A DNA stretch of 32,000 nt from Zestosphaera tikiterensis (GCA_003056265.1 NBVN01000002.1:180001-212000); one strand, 5' to 3'; numbered from the stretch's first letter, positions 3,548-11,162 are shown. Numbers and translations: made by a program. Notes: generated from the letters alone by a model not told the origin.

Positions 3548-5281
3548 CTACCTCGTAGACGCGGTTAAGTCGATAGGCATTCCTTTAGAGCCTGCTAACC
3601 TGCAGATAGCCTCGCCCCTTCTTAAGGATGTGCAGTAATAGCTTACGTCCTTATCTTCAATCCTCACGTAACGTTTTACATGCTTCCAATAACTTAAGTC
3701 GTTAGAACCCATAGCTACGAAAAGTCCGGCATTACCAACTATCACCTCACCAAGGCTTATTAAGTCTTGAGGATGTTGTGTTGCTATCCCAATAATCAAG
3801 CCGTAACTTCTTAAATACCTGATTAAACCTTCTACCTCATCACGTAACTTCGTAGAGTATATCCAAGCTTCATCAAATACTAAAAACTTAAGCGTGTCTG
3901 GGTTGTGTGGGATTTCGTTAACGCCTCTAAGGAGAAGAGCTTTTTTAACGCTTTTAAGTAATGATAAAACAGCTAAGTTAAGAACATTAACGTTTGAAAA
4001 GAAGGCCTTACTTAAGTTTAGAATTAAAACTTTATCTTCATAACCATTTAAGAAAAACCTCAGCCGATTAAACAGAGGCTCACCAACCTCATAGATTGAG
4101 AGCTCGCTTAAGACTTTACTTAGTTTAAACCTTATATAGGGATCCCTAACTAAAGCTAGGTTTTGAATAGCGTTCAATACATAATTATCGCATGAACTTA
4201 GCGAATATGTAAGCAATTCGTTAAGGGCTGAAGCAACTTCCTCGCTTAATGCGTAAGCGTTAGTTATTAAATCCGTTATGGAAGATGCCTTAACCTCTGA
4301 ATATTCGTCTTGAACTAGATTACATAAACCTAAAGCTATGTCATTACCTAAAGTCAATACCTTATAAGGAACTTGCCTTCTACTCAACCTAGTTGAGTAT
4401 TCATTCTTAATATCAACAATCAACGAGGGGATTCCATGAAGTCCGTAAAAACGTTCCACGAGTTCTACGAAGAACTCTGTTTTTCCGGAACCGGTAGGAC
4501 CTACGACAACTATATGTGGTGATACAGCATTATCTACGTTCCAGAAAACTAAGGTCTTCCTTATTAGATGTGTACCCAGTAAAACCTCAACACCTTCGAA
4601 ATTACCGCGTACTTCGTTAAATCCATCGCTAAGCATAAACGGGAGTAGCATAAAAGAGGCTGGGTTAAGAGTCATCAACGTTAGATTAACGCTTTTAAAT
4701 ACGCCTTTAAAAAGCTTAGTTAGATTTTTCAAGCTGTTAAGTTTGTTATTGCTGACTACCGTCTTTACTCCTAAACTATTCAAGCTCTTAACTAAAGCCT
4801 CTACTTTAGAGTTTAAGTTCGCATATGCTTTACTTGAATCCTCACCGCATTCCTTCAGTATAAACTCCGTTTCTATCTTCAGTGGAGGAAAGCCCTTTAA
4901 AGCGATATCCCGTATTTTCCTTAATATTCTTAACCGGCTTCTCAAGGCTTCATTAGCTGGATTACTATTCAACACTAGTTCTAACGTCTCTATCCTTCTA
5001 TTAAGCTTCTCTATGAAGTCCTCATTCCTCACAGGGCTTATTAAACTACGGATCTCAATTGAGAAGCCTAAGTTAATGCTGTTAAGGTAGCTTAACATGA
5101 AATGTTGAAGGTCTTGAGGATCTAGGTCTAGGAGTGAAACGGGTAGATCAACAACTTTTATAACTTTCTCATAGCATTTAACGTCGGACCTTCCTTTAAC
5201 GACCTCCTTAAGCTTGACGAACCTACGTATGATCCACTTAAAATAATCTCTACTTAACCTACGCTCTATCCTTAACAACAT
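3548..5281 (-). CDS. VirB4/HerA-like P-loop ATPase (FtsK-HerA superfamily), last gene of the pilus-like operon
   Basis: 577 aa. The N-terminal ~250 aa are helix-rich. The Walker A context is VSPHIVVVGPTGSGKTEFF, followed by LIVDIKNEYS (DUF87/HerA-like). Walker B is LVFDEAW, the DEAW typical of VirB4/TraC/TrbE. A downstream IGIATQHPQDL matches the TQ..D motif of conjugative and FtsK-like ATPases. Its start overlaps the upstream gene by 23 nt. Confidence 0.7.
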   Translation of the reverse strand: MLLRIERRLSRDYFKWIIRRFVKLKEVVKGRSDVKCYEKVIKVVDLPVSLLDLDPQDLQHFMLSYLNSINLGFSIEIRSLISPVRNEDFIEKLNRRIETLELVLNSNPANEALRSRLRILRKIRDIALKGFPPLKIETEFILKECGEDSSKAYANLNSKVEALVKSLNSLGVKTVVSNNKLNSLKNLTKLFKGVFKSVNLTLMTLNPASFMLLPFMLSDGFNEVRGNFEGVEVLLGTHLIRKTLVFWNVDNAVSPHIVVVGPTGSGKTEFFVELVERFYGLHGIPSLIVDIKNEYSTRLSRRQVPYKVLTLGNDIALGLCNLVQDEYSEVKASSITDLITNAYALSEEVASALNELLTYSLSSCDNYVLNAIQNLALVRDPYIRFKLSKVLSELSIYEVGEPLFNRLRFFLNGYEDKVLILNLSKAFFSNVNVLNLAVLSLLKSVKKALLLRGVNEIPHNPDTLKFLVFDEAWIYSTKLRDEVEGLIRYLRSYGLIIGIATQHPQDLISLGEVIVGNAGLFVAMGSNDLSYWKHVKRYVRIEDKDVSYYCTSLRRGEAICRLAGSKGMPIDLTASTR

Positions 5282-7499
5282 CGAATAACACCTTACTTAA
5301 GGTAAAGCCTTTAACTAGCATAAACCTAACCACATCTTTAACGGGTACTTCATATACCTTAAGGTTTTCGATAAACCCTGCTGGAATAGAAAACACGTAG
5401 ATACCGTTAGATAAGATCTCCTTAAGTGAGGCAGTGACCTCTAGAAAACCTTCATCGCCGTAGGAATGCTTTAGTAAAGCGCCACAAGCGATCACGGTTA
5501 TTTGAGGGTTATTAGATTTATAGCTAAGCTTAAGCGTACATAACTTAGCATCGCATGTAACGTCGATAAAGTTAAGCTCTAACGCAGAGTCTTTAGGTAA
5601 GGTAAAAACATAGTCAACGCATCTAACCCCGCCACGCTTGGCGTTTCTTACTTCAAAACCTAACGCATTATTTCTTACAACATCAACTTTAGGTAAGCAT
5701 CTAACGACATGGGTTTTAACCCAAATGTAGCCTTCGTAAGTTAAGTATTCGTCAATCACTATCGGCGGTTCGCAATCTTCAACGTCAACACGCACACCAC
5801 TTAATACCTTACCCCCGCAAATTACGCGTAAGGGGACTCCAGCACTAGTCGAGATACTTAACACGCCGTTTTGAAGTTCCTCTAGCCTTAAAGTAGTTGG
5901 TGGTTCCTTAACTTCTCGACAGTTATTAAACTCTACAGTGAATAATCCTAAATCTTGAATAACCCCATCAAAAAACTCCATCGATACTTTAAACTTAAGG
6001 AAGTTAGACCCGCTTTTAATAACTTCCTTAACGTTTAAGTCAGCGTTTACTAAAACATCACTATCGTTTATTACGTTAACGTGCGTTATTTTCATACCTG
6101 GGCTTAAACCAGTTATCAAGACTTTAGGGACTTCAGGGAAAGTTTTACTATAGGTTAAAGAAAGTAGCATCTTAAAGTTGGAAACGCCGTCTTTAAGCTT
6201 CCCATTTACGCTATAGCTGCAGTCCTTAACAACCACCCCCTCAAGAACCAAAGGTTTTGAAGTTATTTGGAAAGCTTTGGAGAACGTTCCTATAGGTGTT
6301 TTAAGTGCCGCAACTACATCTATAGGACTTCCGAACTCTTTAGGTTTTAAATGTATTACTTTTGAATTACCTTTAAGGTCTTCTCTGACTATGCTTACGT
6401 TACCGTTAAAGCTTATCGAAAACCATTCATTCCAAGGCTTTACTTCCACCTGTGCGTAACTCTCGCTAGAGACGTAATTCTTAATTACTGATATTTCAGG
6501 TGTTATTAAACCTTTCGTGTTTAGTAACGTTAATCCATCCTTAACCACGCAGAGAACTAAATCATTAGCTATTGGAATGCATGAATATGCTTCAACGTAA
6601 GCTACGTTTCTATTATCAACGTTTATTAACGACCACGCCATCCCTTTGGTTTTGAAAACTACTACATTTCTAAAGCACGTTAGGTTCTCTACTTTCACCT
6701 CATTACTTAACTTAAGTAGTAGGTGGTCTTTAAGCAAACAAACACCTTCCTTAGAGTTGACAACTATATCCCCTTCGTAACAGCAGAGAGAGCCGTATTC
6801 AACGCTTAAAGGGAATATAGGCTCGTATAAGTCCTTAACGTGCTTAACTATTAACACACCGTCAAAGAAGTAATTGAAGTTCCCGCAACTTATAAGCGGT
6901 TGCAACTCACAAAGAACTTCATAGGCTTCCTCACTAGTTAAAGAAACTGAGAAGCATCTATCTTCACCTTTAACCACACATATGTTTTTAGAGCAGATTA
7001 CACTTTCAATATCTGACGCTTTTATCACGTGCTCTTTATAGGATCCTGTCAACAAATCTAGCATAAGAACATAGCATTTCCTACCTCTGCAGGCGGTTAC
7101 CACAAGCAAGTCGTTAAAGGTGAAATGCTTGATTCTCCCAGGTCTAACGACTCTATCCTTAACGAATTCATAATAACCTTCAGAATTTTTACCTACGCAT
7201 ACATTTAAAACTCCGTCGAAGAGAGCGTACCTACTTAGCCTTTCAGAACATACGCCTAACCTACTTACGTCATCACTTAATTCAAAACTTACGCGACTTA
7301 TTAAATCAAATTCTAAGTTCTCATTCACTTTAAATATTGAACGTGTGGAATCGCTAGATAAAACTACTAACACAGGTAGGTAATTAAGAAGTCGTAGGTA
7401 AACATTTCTATACGTAACTTTCATATTAAGTAAGTTTTCTAAAATATCCCAGCTTACAAACCTAATTATCTCAGGCAATACCAACATCTTAAATAACAC
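5259..7499 (-). CDS. Large cysteine-rich protein of unknown function, with a propeller-like repeat region plus a beta-rich C-terminal half
   Basis: A 746-aa uninterrupted ORF that overlaps both neighbours (11 nt upstream, 23 nt downstream). I recognise no family. It has 24 Cys, 15 of them in the first ~320 aa, and about 7 blade-like repeats with 35-43 aa periodicity between residues ~90 and 330. I see no convincing signal peptide or TM helix. Confidence 0.75.
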   Translation of the reverse strand: MLFKMLVLPEIIRFVSWDILENLLNMKVTYRNVYLRLLNYLPVLVVLSSDSTRSIFKVNENLEFDLISRVSFELSDDVSRLGVCSERLSRYALFDGVLNVCVGKNSEGYYEFVKDRVVRPGRIKHFTFNDLLVVTACRGRKCYVLMLDLLTGSYKEHVIKASDIESVICSKNICVVKGEDRCFSVSLTSEEAYEVLCELQPLISCGNFNYFFDGVLIVKHVKDLYEPIFPLSVEYGSLCCYEGDIVVNSKEGVCLLKDHLLLKLSNEVKVENLTCFRNVVVFKTKGMAWSLINVDNRNVAYVEAYSCIPIANDLVLCVVKDGLTLLNTKGLITPEISVIKNYVSSESYAQVEVKPWNEWFSISFNGNVSIVREDLKGNSKVIHLKPKEFGSPIDVVAALKTPIGTFSKAFQITSKPLVLEGVVVKDCSYSVNGKLKDGVSNFKMLLSLTYSKTFPEVPKVLITGLSPGMKITHVNVINDSDVLVNADLNVKEVIKSGSNFLKFKVSMEFFDGVIQDLGLFTVEFNNCREVKEPPTTLRLEELQNGVLSISTSAGVPLRVICGGKVLSGVRVDVEDCEPPIVIDEYLTYEGYIWVKTHVVRCLPKVDVVRNNALGFEVRNAKRGGVRCVDYVFTLPKDSALELNFIDVTCDAKLCTLKLSYKSNNPQITVIACGALLKHSYGDEGFLEVTASLKEILSNGIYVFSIPAGFIENLKVYEVPVKDVVRFMLVKGFTLSKVLFDVVKDRA

Positions 7500-8949
7500 C
7501 TAAGAGGTTCAACTCCAACATAGTTATCGACGGCAAGAACGTGTTAGTAAGGTCTTCAAACACTACGTATGATGCGTAGCATGAGTAGAAAATTGACGTG
7601 ATGATTATGTAGGTGGTTATTACGGTGTTGGCTTGATGGATTATGTTAATAGTTGCTGATTGCAGTAGAGGTAATAATAAAGCTAAAGCCACTATAACGG
7701 AATTAGCGAGTGCTACAGCTTTAAACGATCTTAACGCTTCGTTAACAACCTCCTGCAACTTACTTAAGACTTCCCTACTAATAACACCTAAGCTTAACCC
7801 CTTACTTAAGCAGTAGAAGACGAAGCTTGCGACCCACGACCTACTAACGGGTTTTTGCTTTCGTAACGTCAACTCAAGAGGTGAGAACTCAAAATCTAGT
7901 TCAGAAGCCTCAACAGCTTTCTTTAAAGAGTCGAGAGGGTTTATACTGATTGATGACACGCCTGACGCTAAATCTAAGAACTTACTTAATCGACTTAACT
8001 CCCTAACGTTTTTTAAGAAGTCCTTAGTTACGTAGATTCCAAACATAAGTAAAGGCAGGCTTAAAACCAGTAAGTTAAACTTCTTGAACAGTAGGTAGTA
8101 TGTTATCGTTGGGATAGTTAGTAAGGGTAGGAGGGTTAAGTTCTTACGTGACGTAATTTTCTCGAACTTTAGATATTTAGGATATTTAGGTAAGGCGAAA
8201 AAAGAGATAGGCGCTAAAACGATGGTTAAAGTAAATACTTGATTAATGAAATTGCTTCCTAATAACGTAGTTAAAGGCACTACCACGACTGGTGTGTAGC
8301 CTAACAAAACAGCCACAACTAAGGATACGGTGGCTCTAGCTTTGATAACGTTGTAAGTGTTTGTTCGTACTTCATCAAGTATTCGCTGGCCTAAGCCCTG
8401 CATCCAGAAGACGTAGGTTCCAGAGTTAGTAGCTAGTAAGTAGTCTGTTAATACGCTATTAACTATTTTAGACTTAACCCACTTACGATACTCATTAACA
8501 CCTTTAACGATTCCTAAGAAGTCTACTAACCTACGTAGTATGTTACTCTCACGACAAAGCTTTTTAAACACATTACACCAAGCACTTAAGTTTTGAAGAT
8601 CTTTGAGAAGGTCTGAATCTTTAGATAAAGACACATAATTGGAAATCAAGAAATACTTGAATTCCTCTTCTAACTCTCTATGGTAACTTCTGGATTCCAT
8701 AATCAAATATACTGGATACAGAATAAACGGTAGTAACGCTGAAGTTAACGAAGCTAAGGCTATGGTAGGTAACGATGTAATCTTAAGTAGGAAGTGCATG
8801 CTTAAGATAGTTACTGTCAAGAAAGATAACGACGTAATTGAAATCTTCTTCATTAAGTATCTGTTAACAAACCTTAACTCAACAGGTTTTCTAGCCATGA
8901 ACAATTCTCTATGTATAAAGTCAGCGTAAACATTAATTAATGACTTCAT
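7489..8949 (-). CDS. Polytopic membrane platform protein, FlaJ/TadC/PilC (T2SSF)-like
   Basis: 486 aa. The architecture is two hydrophobic helices, a ~120-aa soluble helical segment, a cluster of TM helices, a second ~90-aa soluble segment and a C-terminal TM cluster. This is the duplicated layout of archaeal pilus/archaellum platform proteins. It overlaps the upstream ATPase gene by 17 nt. The assignment rests on architecture and context, not on motifs. Confidence 0.65.
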   Translation of the reverse strand: MKSLINVYADFIHRELFMARKPVELRFVNRYLMKKISITSLSFLTVTILSMHFLLKITSLPTIALASLTSALLPFILYPVYLIMESRSYHRELEEEFKYFLISNYVSLSKDSDLLKDLQNLSAWCNVFKKLCRESNILRRLVDFLGIVKGVNEYRKWVKSKIVNSVLTDYLLATNSGTYVFWMQGLGQRILDEVRTNTYNVIKARATVSLVVAVLLGYTPVVVVPLTTLLGSNFINQVFTLTIVLAPISFFALPKYPKYLKFEKITSRKNLTLLPLLTIPTITYYLLFKKFNLLVLSLPLLMFGIYVTKDFLKNVRELSRLSKFLDLASGVSSISINPLDSLKKAVEASELDFEFSPLELTLRKQKPVSRSWVASFVFYCLSKGLSLGVISREVLSKLQEVVNEALRSFKAVALANSVIVALALLLPLLQSATINIIHQANTVITTYIIITSIFYSCYASYVVFEDLTNTFLPSITMLELNLLGVI

Positions 8950-10258
8950 GCTGTACTAACCTCGTAAAACGCTGAGTAATTTCTAGATGTGACTTACCTG
9001 CTTTCTTAGCTTTACTTAAGATTTCTTCAAAGCTGACGTCCTCTCCATACTCGTATAGGTTATTTAGCTTAACGACGTCTTCGGATATGGAGTATATAGG
9101 TTCGTCAACGCTAACCACAGCTCTTTTTAACCCCACCCCTTTAACGTAGTTTAATGTGATTATCAAGTCAAACATTGATACTTGATAGGGTGTTAAGCTT
9201 ATCGGTGGGGACATAAGCCTTAGTAAGGCTTCCTCAGCGCTACCGCCGTGGAAAGTTGTTAATGAGCCTAAGCCCATATTAATAGCTTGAACTAAAACCC
9301 TAGCTTCAGCTCCTCTAGTTTCACCTATAACTATAAACCTATTGACGGACGACCTTAAAGCAGCTTTAGTTAGGAAGAATTGATCTATAGGGCTTTCAAG
9401 ATTCCAAGGTGATGTAGGCACTACATACTTAACCCAACTGCTGTCGTTAGGTATGTCTATCTCGGGCGTGTCTTCAATTATACATACCTTCCAATTCTTA
9501 GGTATTAACTCGTAGAGTAGCGCCTTAAGTAATGTTGTCTTACCTGAGCCAGGCGGCCCCACTATTATTACAGAGCCTCTATTCCTTAAAACATAGTTGA
9601 CTAACTGAACCACAGCCTCTTTAACCATACCATCATTAATTAAGTCCTTCAAACTTACGTAAGTTTTAAGCTTCTTTCTAATGGTTATTTCGCCTTTACT
9701 ATCCGCTATATCCGGAAGAACTAAATGTATGCGATGCCCACCATCTTCCGCCGGAAGATTAGCGTCTACTATAGGACTTGCCTTAGTTATTAACTTGCCT
9801 GCTCTTTGCGCTAACACACTTAAATGCTCGAGGAAGTCATTCATATCCTCTATGACTATATTCGTTTTAATGTAATCAACGTCCGGATCGGATTTAACGA
9901 TTAAAGAATGCCTAACCCACACAAACCCAGGACCGCTTATAGAGATATCCTCTATATATGGATCGTCTATTAAGACCTGCAACTTCTTATATTTCATCTC
10001 CTCACGTAATGTGTAGGCTATCTTAAGCTCGTTGGGATTTAATCTTAACTTTCTCTTAATTACAGCAGCTGCGTTTTTAACGTAGCTATACATGTTACTT
10101 TCTTTAGCGCTTATTAAAACCTTACCTAACTCCTCCTTCAATACGTTACTATATGGTTTATCAACGCTGTTAGTAGCTATGTACTTATAGTCTCCGGACT
10201 CCTCCTTAACTATAATTATGTTGAAGGTGCCGACTTTATATGAAGAAACTATACTCAT
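8933..10258 (-). CDS. Type II/IV secretion family ATPase (FlaI/PilB/VirB11-like pilus assembly ATPase)
   Basis: 441 aa. Walker A is IIVGPPGSGKTTLL, the Asp box is IIEDTPEI, Walker B is FIVIGETRG and the His box is LTTFHGGS, all in canonical order. A GGTG Shine-Dalgarno-like element lies ~9 nt upstream of the ATG. Confidence 0.9.
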   Translation of the reverse strand: MSIVSSYKVGTFNIIIVKEESGDYKYIATNSVDKPYSNVLKEELGKVLISAKESNMYSYVKNAAAVIKRKLRLNPNELKIAYTLREEMKYKKLQVLIDDPYIEDISISGPGFVWVRHSLIVKSDPDVDYIKTNIVIEDMNDFLEHLSVLAQRAGKLITKASPIVDANLPAEDGGHRIHLVLPDIADSKGEITIRKKLKTYVSLKDLINDGMVKEAVVQLVNYVLRNRGSVIIVGPPGSGKTTLLKALLYELIPKNWKVCIIEDTPEIDIPNDSSWVKYVVPTSPWNLESPIDQFFLTKAALRSSVNRFIVIGETRGAEARVLVQAINMGLGSLTTFHGGSAEEALLRLMSPPISLTPYQVSMFDLIITLNYVKGVGLKRAVVSVDEPIYSISEDVVKLNNLYEYGEDVSFEEILSKAKKAGKSHLEITQRFTRLVQHEVIN

Positions 10259-10302: not shown

Positions 10303-10746
10303 TTACCTTAAGTTTACGTTAACGTTGAATTTACTGTTTAACGCGTCCACAACCTCAAACACTAACGACATAACATCACTAACGCTGTCTACGGTGATGA
10401 TGAATGTTTGCGATGTTCCTTGTTTTAAATTACTTCCACTACTACCTACTGCTGTATACGTAGCGTTTTCAACTGTCCCATCACTTAATACAGCAAATAC
10501 TTTAGATAGGGTAAAATCTCTGGAACTTCTATTACGTAAAGTTACTACGAATACCTGCTTCGTACCACTTACTTCCTTATGGTTTAAAATACCTTCAACT
10601 TCAGGTGTGAGGACGTAACTACTTACCCTAGAGGATTGCGATGTCAACCACCCTTGAAGAGCTAACGCTATAGGCACGGCTATAGCAACTAAAGTTAACA
10701 CTACGACTAAATCGCTCACGGCCTTATTCGCTTTAAACGCTTTCAT
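10303..10746 (-). CDS. Archaeal type IV pilin-like protein with a class III (PibD-type) signal peptide
   Basis: From the ATG at 10746 the protein begins MKAFKANKA/VSDLVVVLTLVAIAVPIALAL. That is a short basic leader, a small residue at -1, then a ~20-aa hydrophobic helix. A beta-rich Ser/Thr/Val domain follows, with NRS and NAT sequons. A TATA box ~30 nt upstream fits the 10746 start rather than the track start at 10788. Confidence 0.75.
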   Translation of the reverse strand: MKAFKANKAVSDLVVVLTLVAIAVPIALALQGWLTSQSSRVSSYVLTPEVEGILNHKEVSGTKQVFVVTLRNRSSRDFTLSKVFAVLSDGTVENATYTAVGSSGSNLKQGTSQTFIITVDSVSDVMSLVFEVVDALNSKFNVNVNLR

Positions 10747-10772
10747 TTTTAACACCCGTACTTTTTCAAGGG

Positions 10773-10781
10773 TATTTAAAA
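10773..10781 (-). promoter_or_regulatory. TATA box (TTTTAAATA on the minus strand) for the pilin-led operon
   Basis: It is centred ~31 nt upstream of the ATG at 10746, which implies a leaderless or near-leaderless mRNA. Confidence 0.5.
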
Positions 10782-10799
10782 GGTTCATATACCTTTACA

Positions 10800-10808: not shown

Positions 10809-10832
10809 CATCTAACTCTAAGAAATTGACTG

Positions 10833-11162
10833 GTGTATAGCTTGAAGGAGTTTAGACTTAGACTGAAGAAAATCTTAGAATCTATGGCTGGGAAGGTAGT
10901 CACGCCAGGCGACGTGGTGACTTTAACAGGTCTTCCAAGGTATGAAGTTCTAGCTACGATACATGTTTTAGAAGCTTTAAATTTCGTTGAGTTAATAAAT
11001 GAAAAAGGAAACTTTAGAATTTATAAATTAACTAACGCCGGTTTAAAACTTCTAAGAGTACTTGAGGAAATGTCTGAAATCGAGGTTGATATCCTTGCGA
11101 AACCCTCTGAGGAAATCCCAACACATACGACTTCAGCTACTGAAGCAACACAATCTAGTTGA
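10833..11162 (+). CDS. Small winged-helix (wHTH) DNA-binding protein, divergent from the pilus-like operon
   Basis: 109 aa with a GTG start. The segment VVTPGDVVTLTGLPRYEVLATIHVLEALNFVELINEKGNFRIYKLTNAGLKLL has the helix-turn-helix plus beta-wing pattern of MarR/archaeal wHTH proteins. The tail is acidic and Ser/Thr-rich. Confidence 0.6.
   Translation: MYSLKEFRLRLKKILESMAGKVVTPGDVVTLTGLPRYEVLATIHVLEALNFVELINEKGNFRIYKLTNAGLKLLRVLEEMSEIEVDILAKPSEEIPTHTTSATEATQSS

Follow-up and report, generated by a model that had tools for sequence, protein, structure and literature searches.

We have analysed a stretch of 32,000 nucleotides (nt) from the metagenome-assembled genome of Zestosphaera tikiterensis (GCA_003056265.1, NBVN01000002.1:180001-212000), referred to here as the window; coordinates are counted from its first letter unless another locus is named. 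The minus strand of the window carries an operon of five genes that encode, in this order, a class III pilin, a FlaI-like ATPase, an UpsF-like platform protein, a large cysteine-rich protein and an ATPase of the CedB type. Our work identifies the large protein, the product of the fourth gene, as a very divergent form of a protein that is known but has not been explained, lying in a new operon context: judged by profile comparisons, it is a very distant member of the UpsX superfamily. As to its function, we favour, with somewhat more confidence than doubt, the idea that the protein is a cytoplasmic or membrane-peripheral adaptor that couples the base of an Ups-like pilus to the CedB motor; its location, its partners and its role in DNA import are what we infer here. 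The soluble protein would sit on the cytoplasmic face of the membrane, where, as a scaffold or adaptor, it would bring CedB to the pilus base or its vicinity, position it there or activate it, and the import of DNA would thereby be coupled to pilus-mediated cell contact.

The relationship to UpsX becomes apparent when families rather than single sequences are compared. As a reference we used UpsX proteins whose identity was established by the curated NCBIfam models for UpsX, UpsF and CedB, by the ups operon, and by the neighbouring EndoIII, ParB, glycosyltransferase and helicase genes. In the reference cluster of the Sulfolobaceae, from a genome that we take to be that of S. acidocaldarius DSM 639, the gene for X (675 amino acids, aa) is followed by the genes for a T2SSE protein, a membrane protein and two pilins, and then by the EndoIII-ParB-glycosyltransferase-helicase genes. 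An alignment of 22 sequences of the window protein's family matched 22 UpsX sequences in hhalign with 97.7%, an E-value of 1.5e-12 and 557 columns in collinear order; as a control, the UpsX sequences were reversed, which gave P 0.53. The match extends over residues 82-670 of the 675 residues of UpsX, i.e. over the propeller, the beta-sandwich domains and the C-terminal helix described below, and pairs the C-terminal helix of the window protein with UpsX residues ~640-670. Bridging sequences connect the two families: an 823-aa protein from another family of organisms (locus L068) is matched by the hidden Markov models of both (9.4e-16 and 1.6e-10), and intermediates from three families, once aligned, match the family of the window protein with 99.5% and UpsX with 98.3%. 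Moreover, the N-terminal motif M-K-[IVL]-P is common to both, and a signal peptide was found in neither of them. An earlier note on this DNA had named UpsX as a possible parallel; the connection is stronger than proposed there and is one of remote homology.

The gene is real and its product is conserved. An uninterrupted frame between positions 5259 and 7499 is present on the minus strand only, the plus strand being rich in stop codons at this place. The earlier note had read the entire interval as a 746-aa protein; the open frame stands, but on the minus strand, and the start has in all likelihood to be moved. A start at the GTG at 7499 would give 746 aa, and the ATG at 7487 gives 742 aa. Since all 21 homologs open with M-[KRI]-[VIL]-P-x-[LI] and the protein read from the ATG begins with MLVLPEII, the latter is most likely the true start, which places the gene for the UpsX-like protein at 5259..7487 on the minus strand, with the stop codon TAG at 5261-5259. 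The statement that the protein belongs to no recognisable family holds for sequence searches: neither Pfam nor NCBIfam nor the PDB was matched by the single sequence, Pfam was not matched by any of 22 family sequences searched member by member, and the PDB was not matched by the family profile. Its description as an orphan has to be given up. A word-indexed search of 5.8 billion proteins returned the protein itself and one relative of 69% identity only; when 1.8 billion cluster representatives were searched exhaustively with HMMER, 20 of them matched. Six-frame searches uncovered homologs of 670-820 aa with 21-29% identity, always as intact frames: within the same family, 25 of 36 and then 21 of 27 of the genomes sampled had one. 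When 201 genomes of the order were searched with a profile, weaker matches turned up in 670-820-aa frames of five further families, including the Sulfolobaceae. We designate the protein's own family of organisms, which is uncultured and of the Desulfurococcales type, as f1, other families as f3, f4, f6, f7, f10, f11 and f13, and genera by g and a number. With a merged profile, the UpsX-like superfamily was found in f1 (40 of 45), f13 (43 of 44), f6 (12 of 12) and f3 (one of one); f4, f10 and f11 have it sparsely, and outside this order the class yielded essentially nothing. Within the family of the window protein, the columns P351, W352, P382, L385, G386, G429, P451, C557, C572 and P575 are invariant, and two pairs of cysteines, C303/C313 and C557/C572, are conserved.

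In the operon, the gene is closely joined to both of its neighbours. A single base separates the stop codon of the platform gene from the ATG, and the 3' end overlaps the start of the CedB-like gene by 23 nt, in agreement with the earlier placement of the protein between a pilus platform and a VirB4-like ATPase. From the sequence, the junctions of the operon are translationally coupled, and the protein would be co-translated with the pilus set and with CedB. The downstream ATPase (3548..5281, minus strand, 577 aa), which belongs to the VirB4/HerA class, has the NCBIfam CedB model as its best match (2.3e-58; its 198 bits lie under the 700-bit equivalog cut-off of this model), followed by HerA_antiphage (9.6e-8) and CedD (2.5e-6). 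In the S. acidocaldarius genome, the protein that it matches best reaches 823 bits with the CedB model, and we assign the ATPase to CedB by best model and reciprocal best hit. A genome search showed it to be the sole CedB-like gene of Z. tikiterensis.

The order pilin-ATPase-platform-X-CedB, X being the UpsX-like protein, is found at a fixed chromosomal locus in most of the sampled genera of f1 as well as in f3, f4 (g65) and f6. The operon is flanked by housekeeping genes (SUI1, TFB, Cren7, SSB and ferredoxin), and every homologous locus of the same family that was compared has its five genes, a divergently transcribed winged-helix gene and most of the flanking genes, arranged in much the same way. 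Because of this recurrence we regard the operon as a vertically inherited chromosomal locus and not as a mobile element. CedB-like genes were detected in f1, f3, f4, f6, f13 and once in f7, and in none of the other families sampled. The association with the pilus genes could also mean that the protein belongs to the basal body of the type IV pilus alone, as a cytoplasmic scaffold comparable in its role to the accessory proteins of the archaellum and with no direct relation to CedB, and that the adjacency of cedB reflects nothing but co-regulation. The 1-nt spacer behind the platform gene is in line with this idea, and so are the order X-ATPase-platform-pilin in the Sulfolobaceae and in genus g11 of f1 as well as the situation in f10, where the X-like gene has pilus genes nearby and no clear CedB. 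However, the overlap of 23 nt is with cedB, and the X-like gene stays with cedB in loci of the Ignisphaera type from which the pilus genes are gone. In these loci (L133 and L134; the L133-type genome is presumably that of Ignisphaera aggregans), the same winged-helix gene as in the window is followed by a gene for an 813-aa protein and a split cedB, and no pilin, ATPase or platform gene lies between the winged-helix gene and cedB; in the 813-aa protein, the match to the window protein's family is confined to the C-terminal ~185 columns (92%, P 5e-7). That the X-like gene still precedes cedB here suggests that X and CedB can stay together as a pair when the pilus genes are absent. Finally, an S. 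acidocaldarius ΔupsX mutant has normal pili and aggregates normally, and its DNA exchange is reduced to about half (PMC3892339). Taken together, a role confined to the pilus basal body seems unlikely to us.

Some loci depart from this arrangement. In g11, the order is X-(623-aa protein)-ATPase-platform-pilin with a weak CedB-like gene nearby. A co-loss of the protein and CedB in this genus, which we had considered, was withdrawn when a broader profile found the divergent X-like gene next to the pilus genes and the weak CedB-like ATPase in the vicinity. Where an X-like gene is not followed by cedB (g11, f10 and f11), the next open reading frame (ORF) encodes 620-640 aa (L137:10681-12552, L069:4948-6825, L138:11380-13308); one of the three products has a hydrophobic start and no Pfam match. 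In L068, L072, L073, L133, L134 and L135 (f4 and f6), the CedB-like gene is split into two consecutive, overlapping ORFs, the first for an N-terminal part of ~200 aa and the second for an ATPase part of ~370-400 aa; since this is consistent in many genomes, it looks like a genuine two-gene form and not like a sequencing error. In L070 and L071 (genus g25 of the Sulfolobaceae), upsX is followed by a gene for a 409-aa protein (2e-6 to secretion ATPases, no Pfam match) and then by the EndoIII-ParB-glycosyltransferase-helicase genes; upsF, upsA and upsB are missing, and a winged-helix gene of the type found in the window lies beside upsX. For Acidianus, the absence of upsF, upsA and upsB has already been published.

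The phenotype of the ΔupsX mutant, with pili and aggregation retained and DNA exchange reduced, fits an accessory role on the side of the Ced system. UpsX is predicted to be cytoplasmic and was found in the cytosol and membrane fractions and not on pili; about a third of it shifts to the membrane after ultraviolet (UV) irradiation, and its induction by DNA damage, its relocation and its role in DNA exchange have been established in S. acidocaldarius only (PMC3892339). CedB and CedD are needed for import only (PMC11868833). The operon, the overlap with cedB and the DNA-transfer phenotype of the mutant (PMC3892339) would be equally in keeping with a protein that binds incoming or outgoing DNA, single-stranded or damaged, at the membrane, in the manner of some propellers, and passes it to or from CedB, and the ssb gene a few kb upstream in most loci might be added to this list. 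A nucleic-acid-binding domain was not detected with Pfam and NCBIfam, however, and the structural neighbours of the protein are not specifically DNA-binding folds. We therefore judge direct handling of DNA by the protein to be quite improbable and prefer the idea of an adaptor that acts on CedB.

The likely fold of the protein was derived from AlphaFold2 models based on the 22-sequence family alignment, with the full length and residues 1-342 modelled separately. The full-length model has a mean predicted local distance difference test score (pLDDT) of 84, and the N-terminal domain has a pLDDT of 88 and a predicted template modelling score of 0.84. In the N-terminal domain (6462..7487, minus strand), 31 short strands are predicted within residues 4-328, the count for the propeller being 31-32. 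Foldseek returned 466 PDB matches for this domain at E<=1e-3, and the top 50 are all beta-propellers; the best template modelling scores (TM-scores) were obtained with the eight-bladed BamB, Cdc4/Fbw7, the designed Tako8 and AztD, at a probability of 1.00, E-values of 1e-7 to 1e-5 and identities of 9-13%. The model thus supports a beta-propeller for the N-terminal ~340 residues well, and the strand count as well as the best matches make eight blades more probable than seven. The earlier note had deduced a seven-bladed propeller from seven recurring motifs and had suggested a structure prediction and structural search; these analyses bear out the propeller and not the number of blades. The motifs themselves are all present in the translation (at residues 92, 127, 167, 210, 238, 274 and 307), as are the 24 cysteines reported, 15 of them in the repeat region (residues 84-317), and in the model each motif sits on a beta-hairpin of a successive four-strand unit. 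At the level of the sequence, a profile self-comparison detected no significant repeat in the propeller region (P 0.13), and no Pfam WD40, PQQ or Kelch repeat profile matched any of the 22 family members.

Behind the propeller, the model supports the stacked beta-sandwich domains that had been proposed for the remaining ~400 residues: residues 343-715 (5343..6461, minus strand), all-beta according to DSSP, form three to four immunoglobulin-like (Ig-like) domains. This is the most conserved part of the family; its block pLDDT is mostly 84-95 across residues ~340-600 (77 in one block) and lower past residue 600, and its Foldseek matches include plexin, integrin alpha, RAGE and Ig arrays. An amphipathic helix at the C-terminus (residues 716-742, helical at 716-741 according to DSSP; 5262..5342, minus strand) is aligned with the C-terminal helix of UpsX. 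With the full-length model, Foldseek found the ectodomains of plexin, integrin alpha and BT4673, in which a propeller is carried by an Ig-like stalk. This resemblance, which extends to bacterial surface proteins, and the richness in cysteines with the two conserved pairs could point to an extracellular or pilus-associated adhesin that resembles PilY1 and is exported by a non-classical route. Yet neither a Sec, Tat or class III signal nor a transmembrane segment was found in more than 40 homologs. In the window protein itself, no window of 19 residues exceeds 1.5 on the Kyte-Doolittle scale, so that it has no transmembrane segment or classical signal peptide, as the earlier note had also stated. 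Cysteines are abundant and intracellular disulfides usual in hyperthermophilic Crenarchaeota, which makes the cysteine content normal for an intracellular protein of these organisms. PilY1 is absent from the top 50 structural matches, and the Pfam families PilY1 and Neisseria_PilC are matched neither by the protein nor by its 22 family members. Since UpsX, in addition, fractionates with the cytosol and the membrane and is not found on pili (PMC3892339), the analogy to PilY1 drawn in the earlier note is not supported, and an adhesin is the least likely of the alternatives and in our opinion very improbable.

Several observations nevertheless weigh against an UpsX-type adaptor between pilus and CedB. 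The first group concerns the fold. The Foldseek TM-scores of the N-terminal domain are low (0.37-0.45, below 0.5), the eight blades being deduced from the strands and the best matches, and a propeller on an Ig-like stalk is a layout typical of extracellular receptors, as the matches to plexin and integrin alpha illustrate. Second, the curated NCBIfam UpsX model does not match the protein at E<=1; at E<=10, it found nothing in the Z. tikiterensis genome nor in four genomes that bear homologs. The protein is below the curated cut-off of this model (NF046072, 550 bits), on which S. acidocaldarius UpsX scores 688 bits, and it is thus to be placed outside the UpsX equivalog, as a remote relative at the level of the superfamily only. 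As the curated model misses the protein, the homology rests on the profile-profile and bridging evidence. Third, upsX and cedB are unlinked in the Sulfolobaceae, and f10 and f11 carry X-like proteins without a detectable CedB; the linkage of X and CedB is therefore frequent and not universal, and X is not strictly CedB-dependent. Finally, an UpsE-orthologous ATPase and the two pilins UpsA and UpsB, as expected of a Ups system, were not recognised among the pilus genes. The pilin of the operon has no significant or specific similarity to UpsA and UpsB in hhalign, and the tree of secretion ATPases does not place the operon ATPase as the sister of UpsE. Because the ATPase has its own clade and the single pilin lacks specific similarity to UpsA or UpsB, we refrain from calling this pilus orthologous to Ups; on the present sequence comparisons it is Ups-like through X and the platform protein only.

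The way in which the Ups pilus works together with the Ced importer has yet to be explained in the literature (PMC9905601, PMC11823120, PMC11868833). UpsX has stood without an explanation or a domain assignment since the first description of the ups operon; a survey from 2026 still lists UpsX as unknown and Ups as exclusive to the Sulfolobales (PMC13705601), UpsX has the designation arCOG05986 as an unknown protein, and Aeropyrum is described as lacking Ups (PMC13705601, PMC11823120, PMC9905601). In the papers searched, up to October 2026 and with the 2016 PNAS paper on Ced outside this check, we found none that ties UpsX to CedB or gives a fold for UpsX. Our results indicate that UpsX-like and UpsF-like proteins occur well beyond the Sulfolobaceae, and the model of a distant member suggests a likely fold, i.e. 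propeller, Ig-like stalk and C-terminal helix, for the superfamily of UpsX. The conserved, translationally coupled pair of an UpsX-like protein and CedB provides a specific hypothesis, namely that UpsX binds to CedB/CedD and acts together with them in the import of DNA. We may even speculate, as a tentative thought that we ourselves would not bet on, that UpsX-type proteins dock CedB on or beside the base of the type IV pilus, that Ups and Ced are one hybrid machine of type IV pilus and type IV secretion, and that the ancestral arrangement pilin-ATPase-platform-X-CedB was kept in the uncultured Desulfurococcales and split in the Sulfolobaceae. If this were true, UpsX-type proteins would physically join the two halves of DNA exchange in Crenarchaeota, a connection that has so far been missing.

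The other genes of the operon are consistent with a type IV pilus. The pilin (10303..10788, minus strand, 161 aa) is identified by its translation and an alignment of 18 homologs; it has a textbook archaeal class III signal peptide, with the cleavage site between KANKA and VSDLVVVLTLVAIAVPIALAL, followed by a beta-rich globular domain of ~110 aa. The cleavage motif [KR][GA]/VSDL, the slash marking the cleavage site, is invariant across the 18 homologs, and the gene probably starts at 10746 or 10755 instead. In the closest relative, whose UpsX-like protein is 69% identical, the pilin is in two fragments, frames of 129 nt and 315 nt (L001:2565-3040); gene callers give only an 82-aa product there, and this pilin may be frameshifted or truncated. 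The secretion ATPase (8933..10258, minus strand, 441 aa) is of the FlaI/TadA/VirB11 class (Pfam T2SSE, 5e-23; NCBIfam FlaI, 1.8e-53); in a tree of T2SSE paralogs, the operon ATPases form a long-branched clade of their own, and UpsE groups with a BasE-like paralog. The platform protein (7489..8949, minus strand, 486 aa) is a polytopic membrane protein and, by hhalign, a divergent relative of UpsF: its family profile matches UpsF with 93.1% and P 3.1e-7 over 181 collinear columns (88-271 versus 75-258), whereas the match to the genome's own FlaJ-like protein is weaker (P 1.6e-3). The platform protein was matched neither by Pfam T2SSF, on the genome or member by member, nor in the PDB. S. acidocaldarius UpsF (L109:5662-7176) likewise has no Pfam T2SSF match; as T2SSF misses both proteins, surveys based on Pfam will miss the UpsF-type branch of platform proteins.

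Divergently transcribed from the operon is the gene for the winged-helix protein (10833..11162, plus strand), which is MarR-like according to a weak Pfam MarR_2 match. The position of this gene is conserved: f1, f3 and f4 have it next to the operon, and an Acidianus-like genus has it next to upsX. Its product is a candidate regulator. Between this gene and the pilin gene, the sequence AATTTC (10822-10827, minus strand) agrees with the A(N)TTTC motif of UV-responsive Sulfolobus promoters and precedes the TATA-like TTTTTAAAA of the pilin gene by ~15 nt. As a UV element of the operon it was discarded: it is not conserved in 16 homologous loci and is probably a chance occurrence. With respect to Ced, a CedD-like gene is present elsewhere on the contig of the operon. 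Another contig (C2:128209-129865) encodes a CedA1 homolog, a two-helix protein of 99 aa that matches the Ced pilin of Aeropyrum pernix (PDB 8DFU, E 1.3e-24), and then a membrane protein of 448 aa that carries a large non-membrane insert and is presumably CedA in its long form. The contig with the membrane half of Ced in Z. tikiterensis is thus not the one that carries cedB.

The comparison with known systems places the protein closest to UpsX. The likeness to the eight-bladed propellers BamB, the WD40 protein Cdc4/Fbw7 and AztD, the best structural matches of the N-terminal domain, is one of fold class only; unlike WD40 and PQQ propellers, the protein lacks such sequence repeats, and the identity is 9-13%. 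With PilY1 of bacterial type IVa pili, it has in common that both are large, pilus-associated proteins with a beta-propeller, but PilY1 is secreted, is found on the pilus or its tip, and has a vWA-like region at the N-terminus and the propeller at the C-terminus, whereas the window protein has its propeller at the N-terminus and no export signal. The Ced system consists of CedA, CedA1, CedA2 and CedB together with CedD and CedE (PMC9905601, PMC11868833); the protein adjoins the CedB of its genome, which elsewhere also contains genes for CedA1, a CedA-like and a CedD-like protein. No UpsX-like protein is listed as a component of Ced, however, and cedB lies apart from the ups genes in the model Sulfolobales. 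From UpsX (Saci_1493; NF046072; arCOG05986) the protein differs in several respects: the identity is only 10-14%; its gene is the fourth of the operon (pilin-E-F-X-cedB) and is coupled to cedB, whereas upsX is the first (X-E-F-A-B) and cedB is not linked to it in the Sulfolobaceae; the operon has one pilin rather than two; and it is found in uncultured families of the Desulfurococcales type, while the literature has Ups exclusive to the Sulfolobales (PMC13705601, PMC11823120). In spite of these differences, the two proteins are collinear over nearly their whole length, share the M-K-[IVL]-P motif, the C-terminal helix and the lack of a signal peptide and of any database domain, and are of similar size (740-810 aa in the family of the window protein and 650-710 aa for UpsX), and both are encoded in a type IV pilus operon together with a secretion ATPase, an UpsF-type platform protein and one or two class III pilins.

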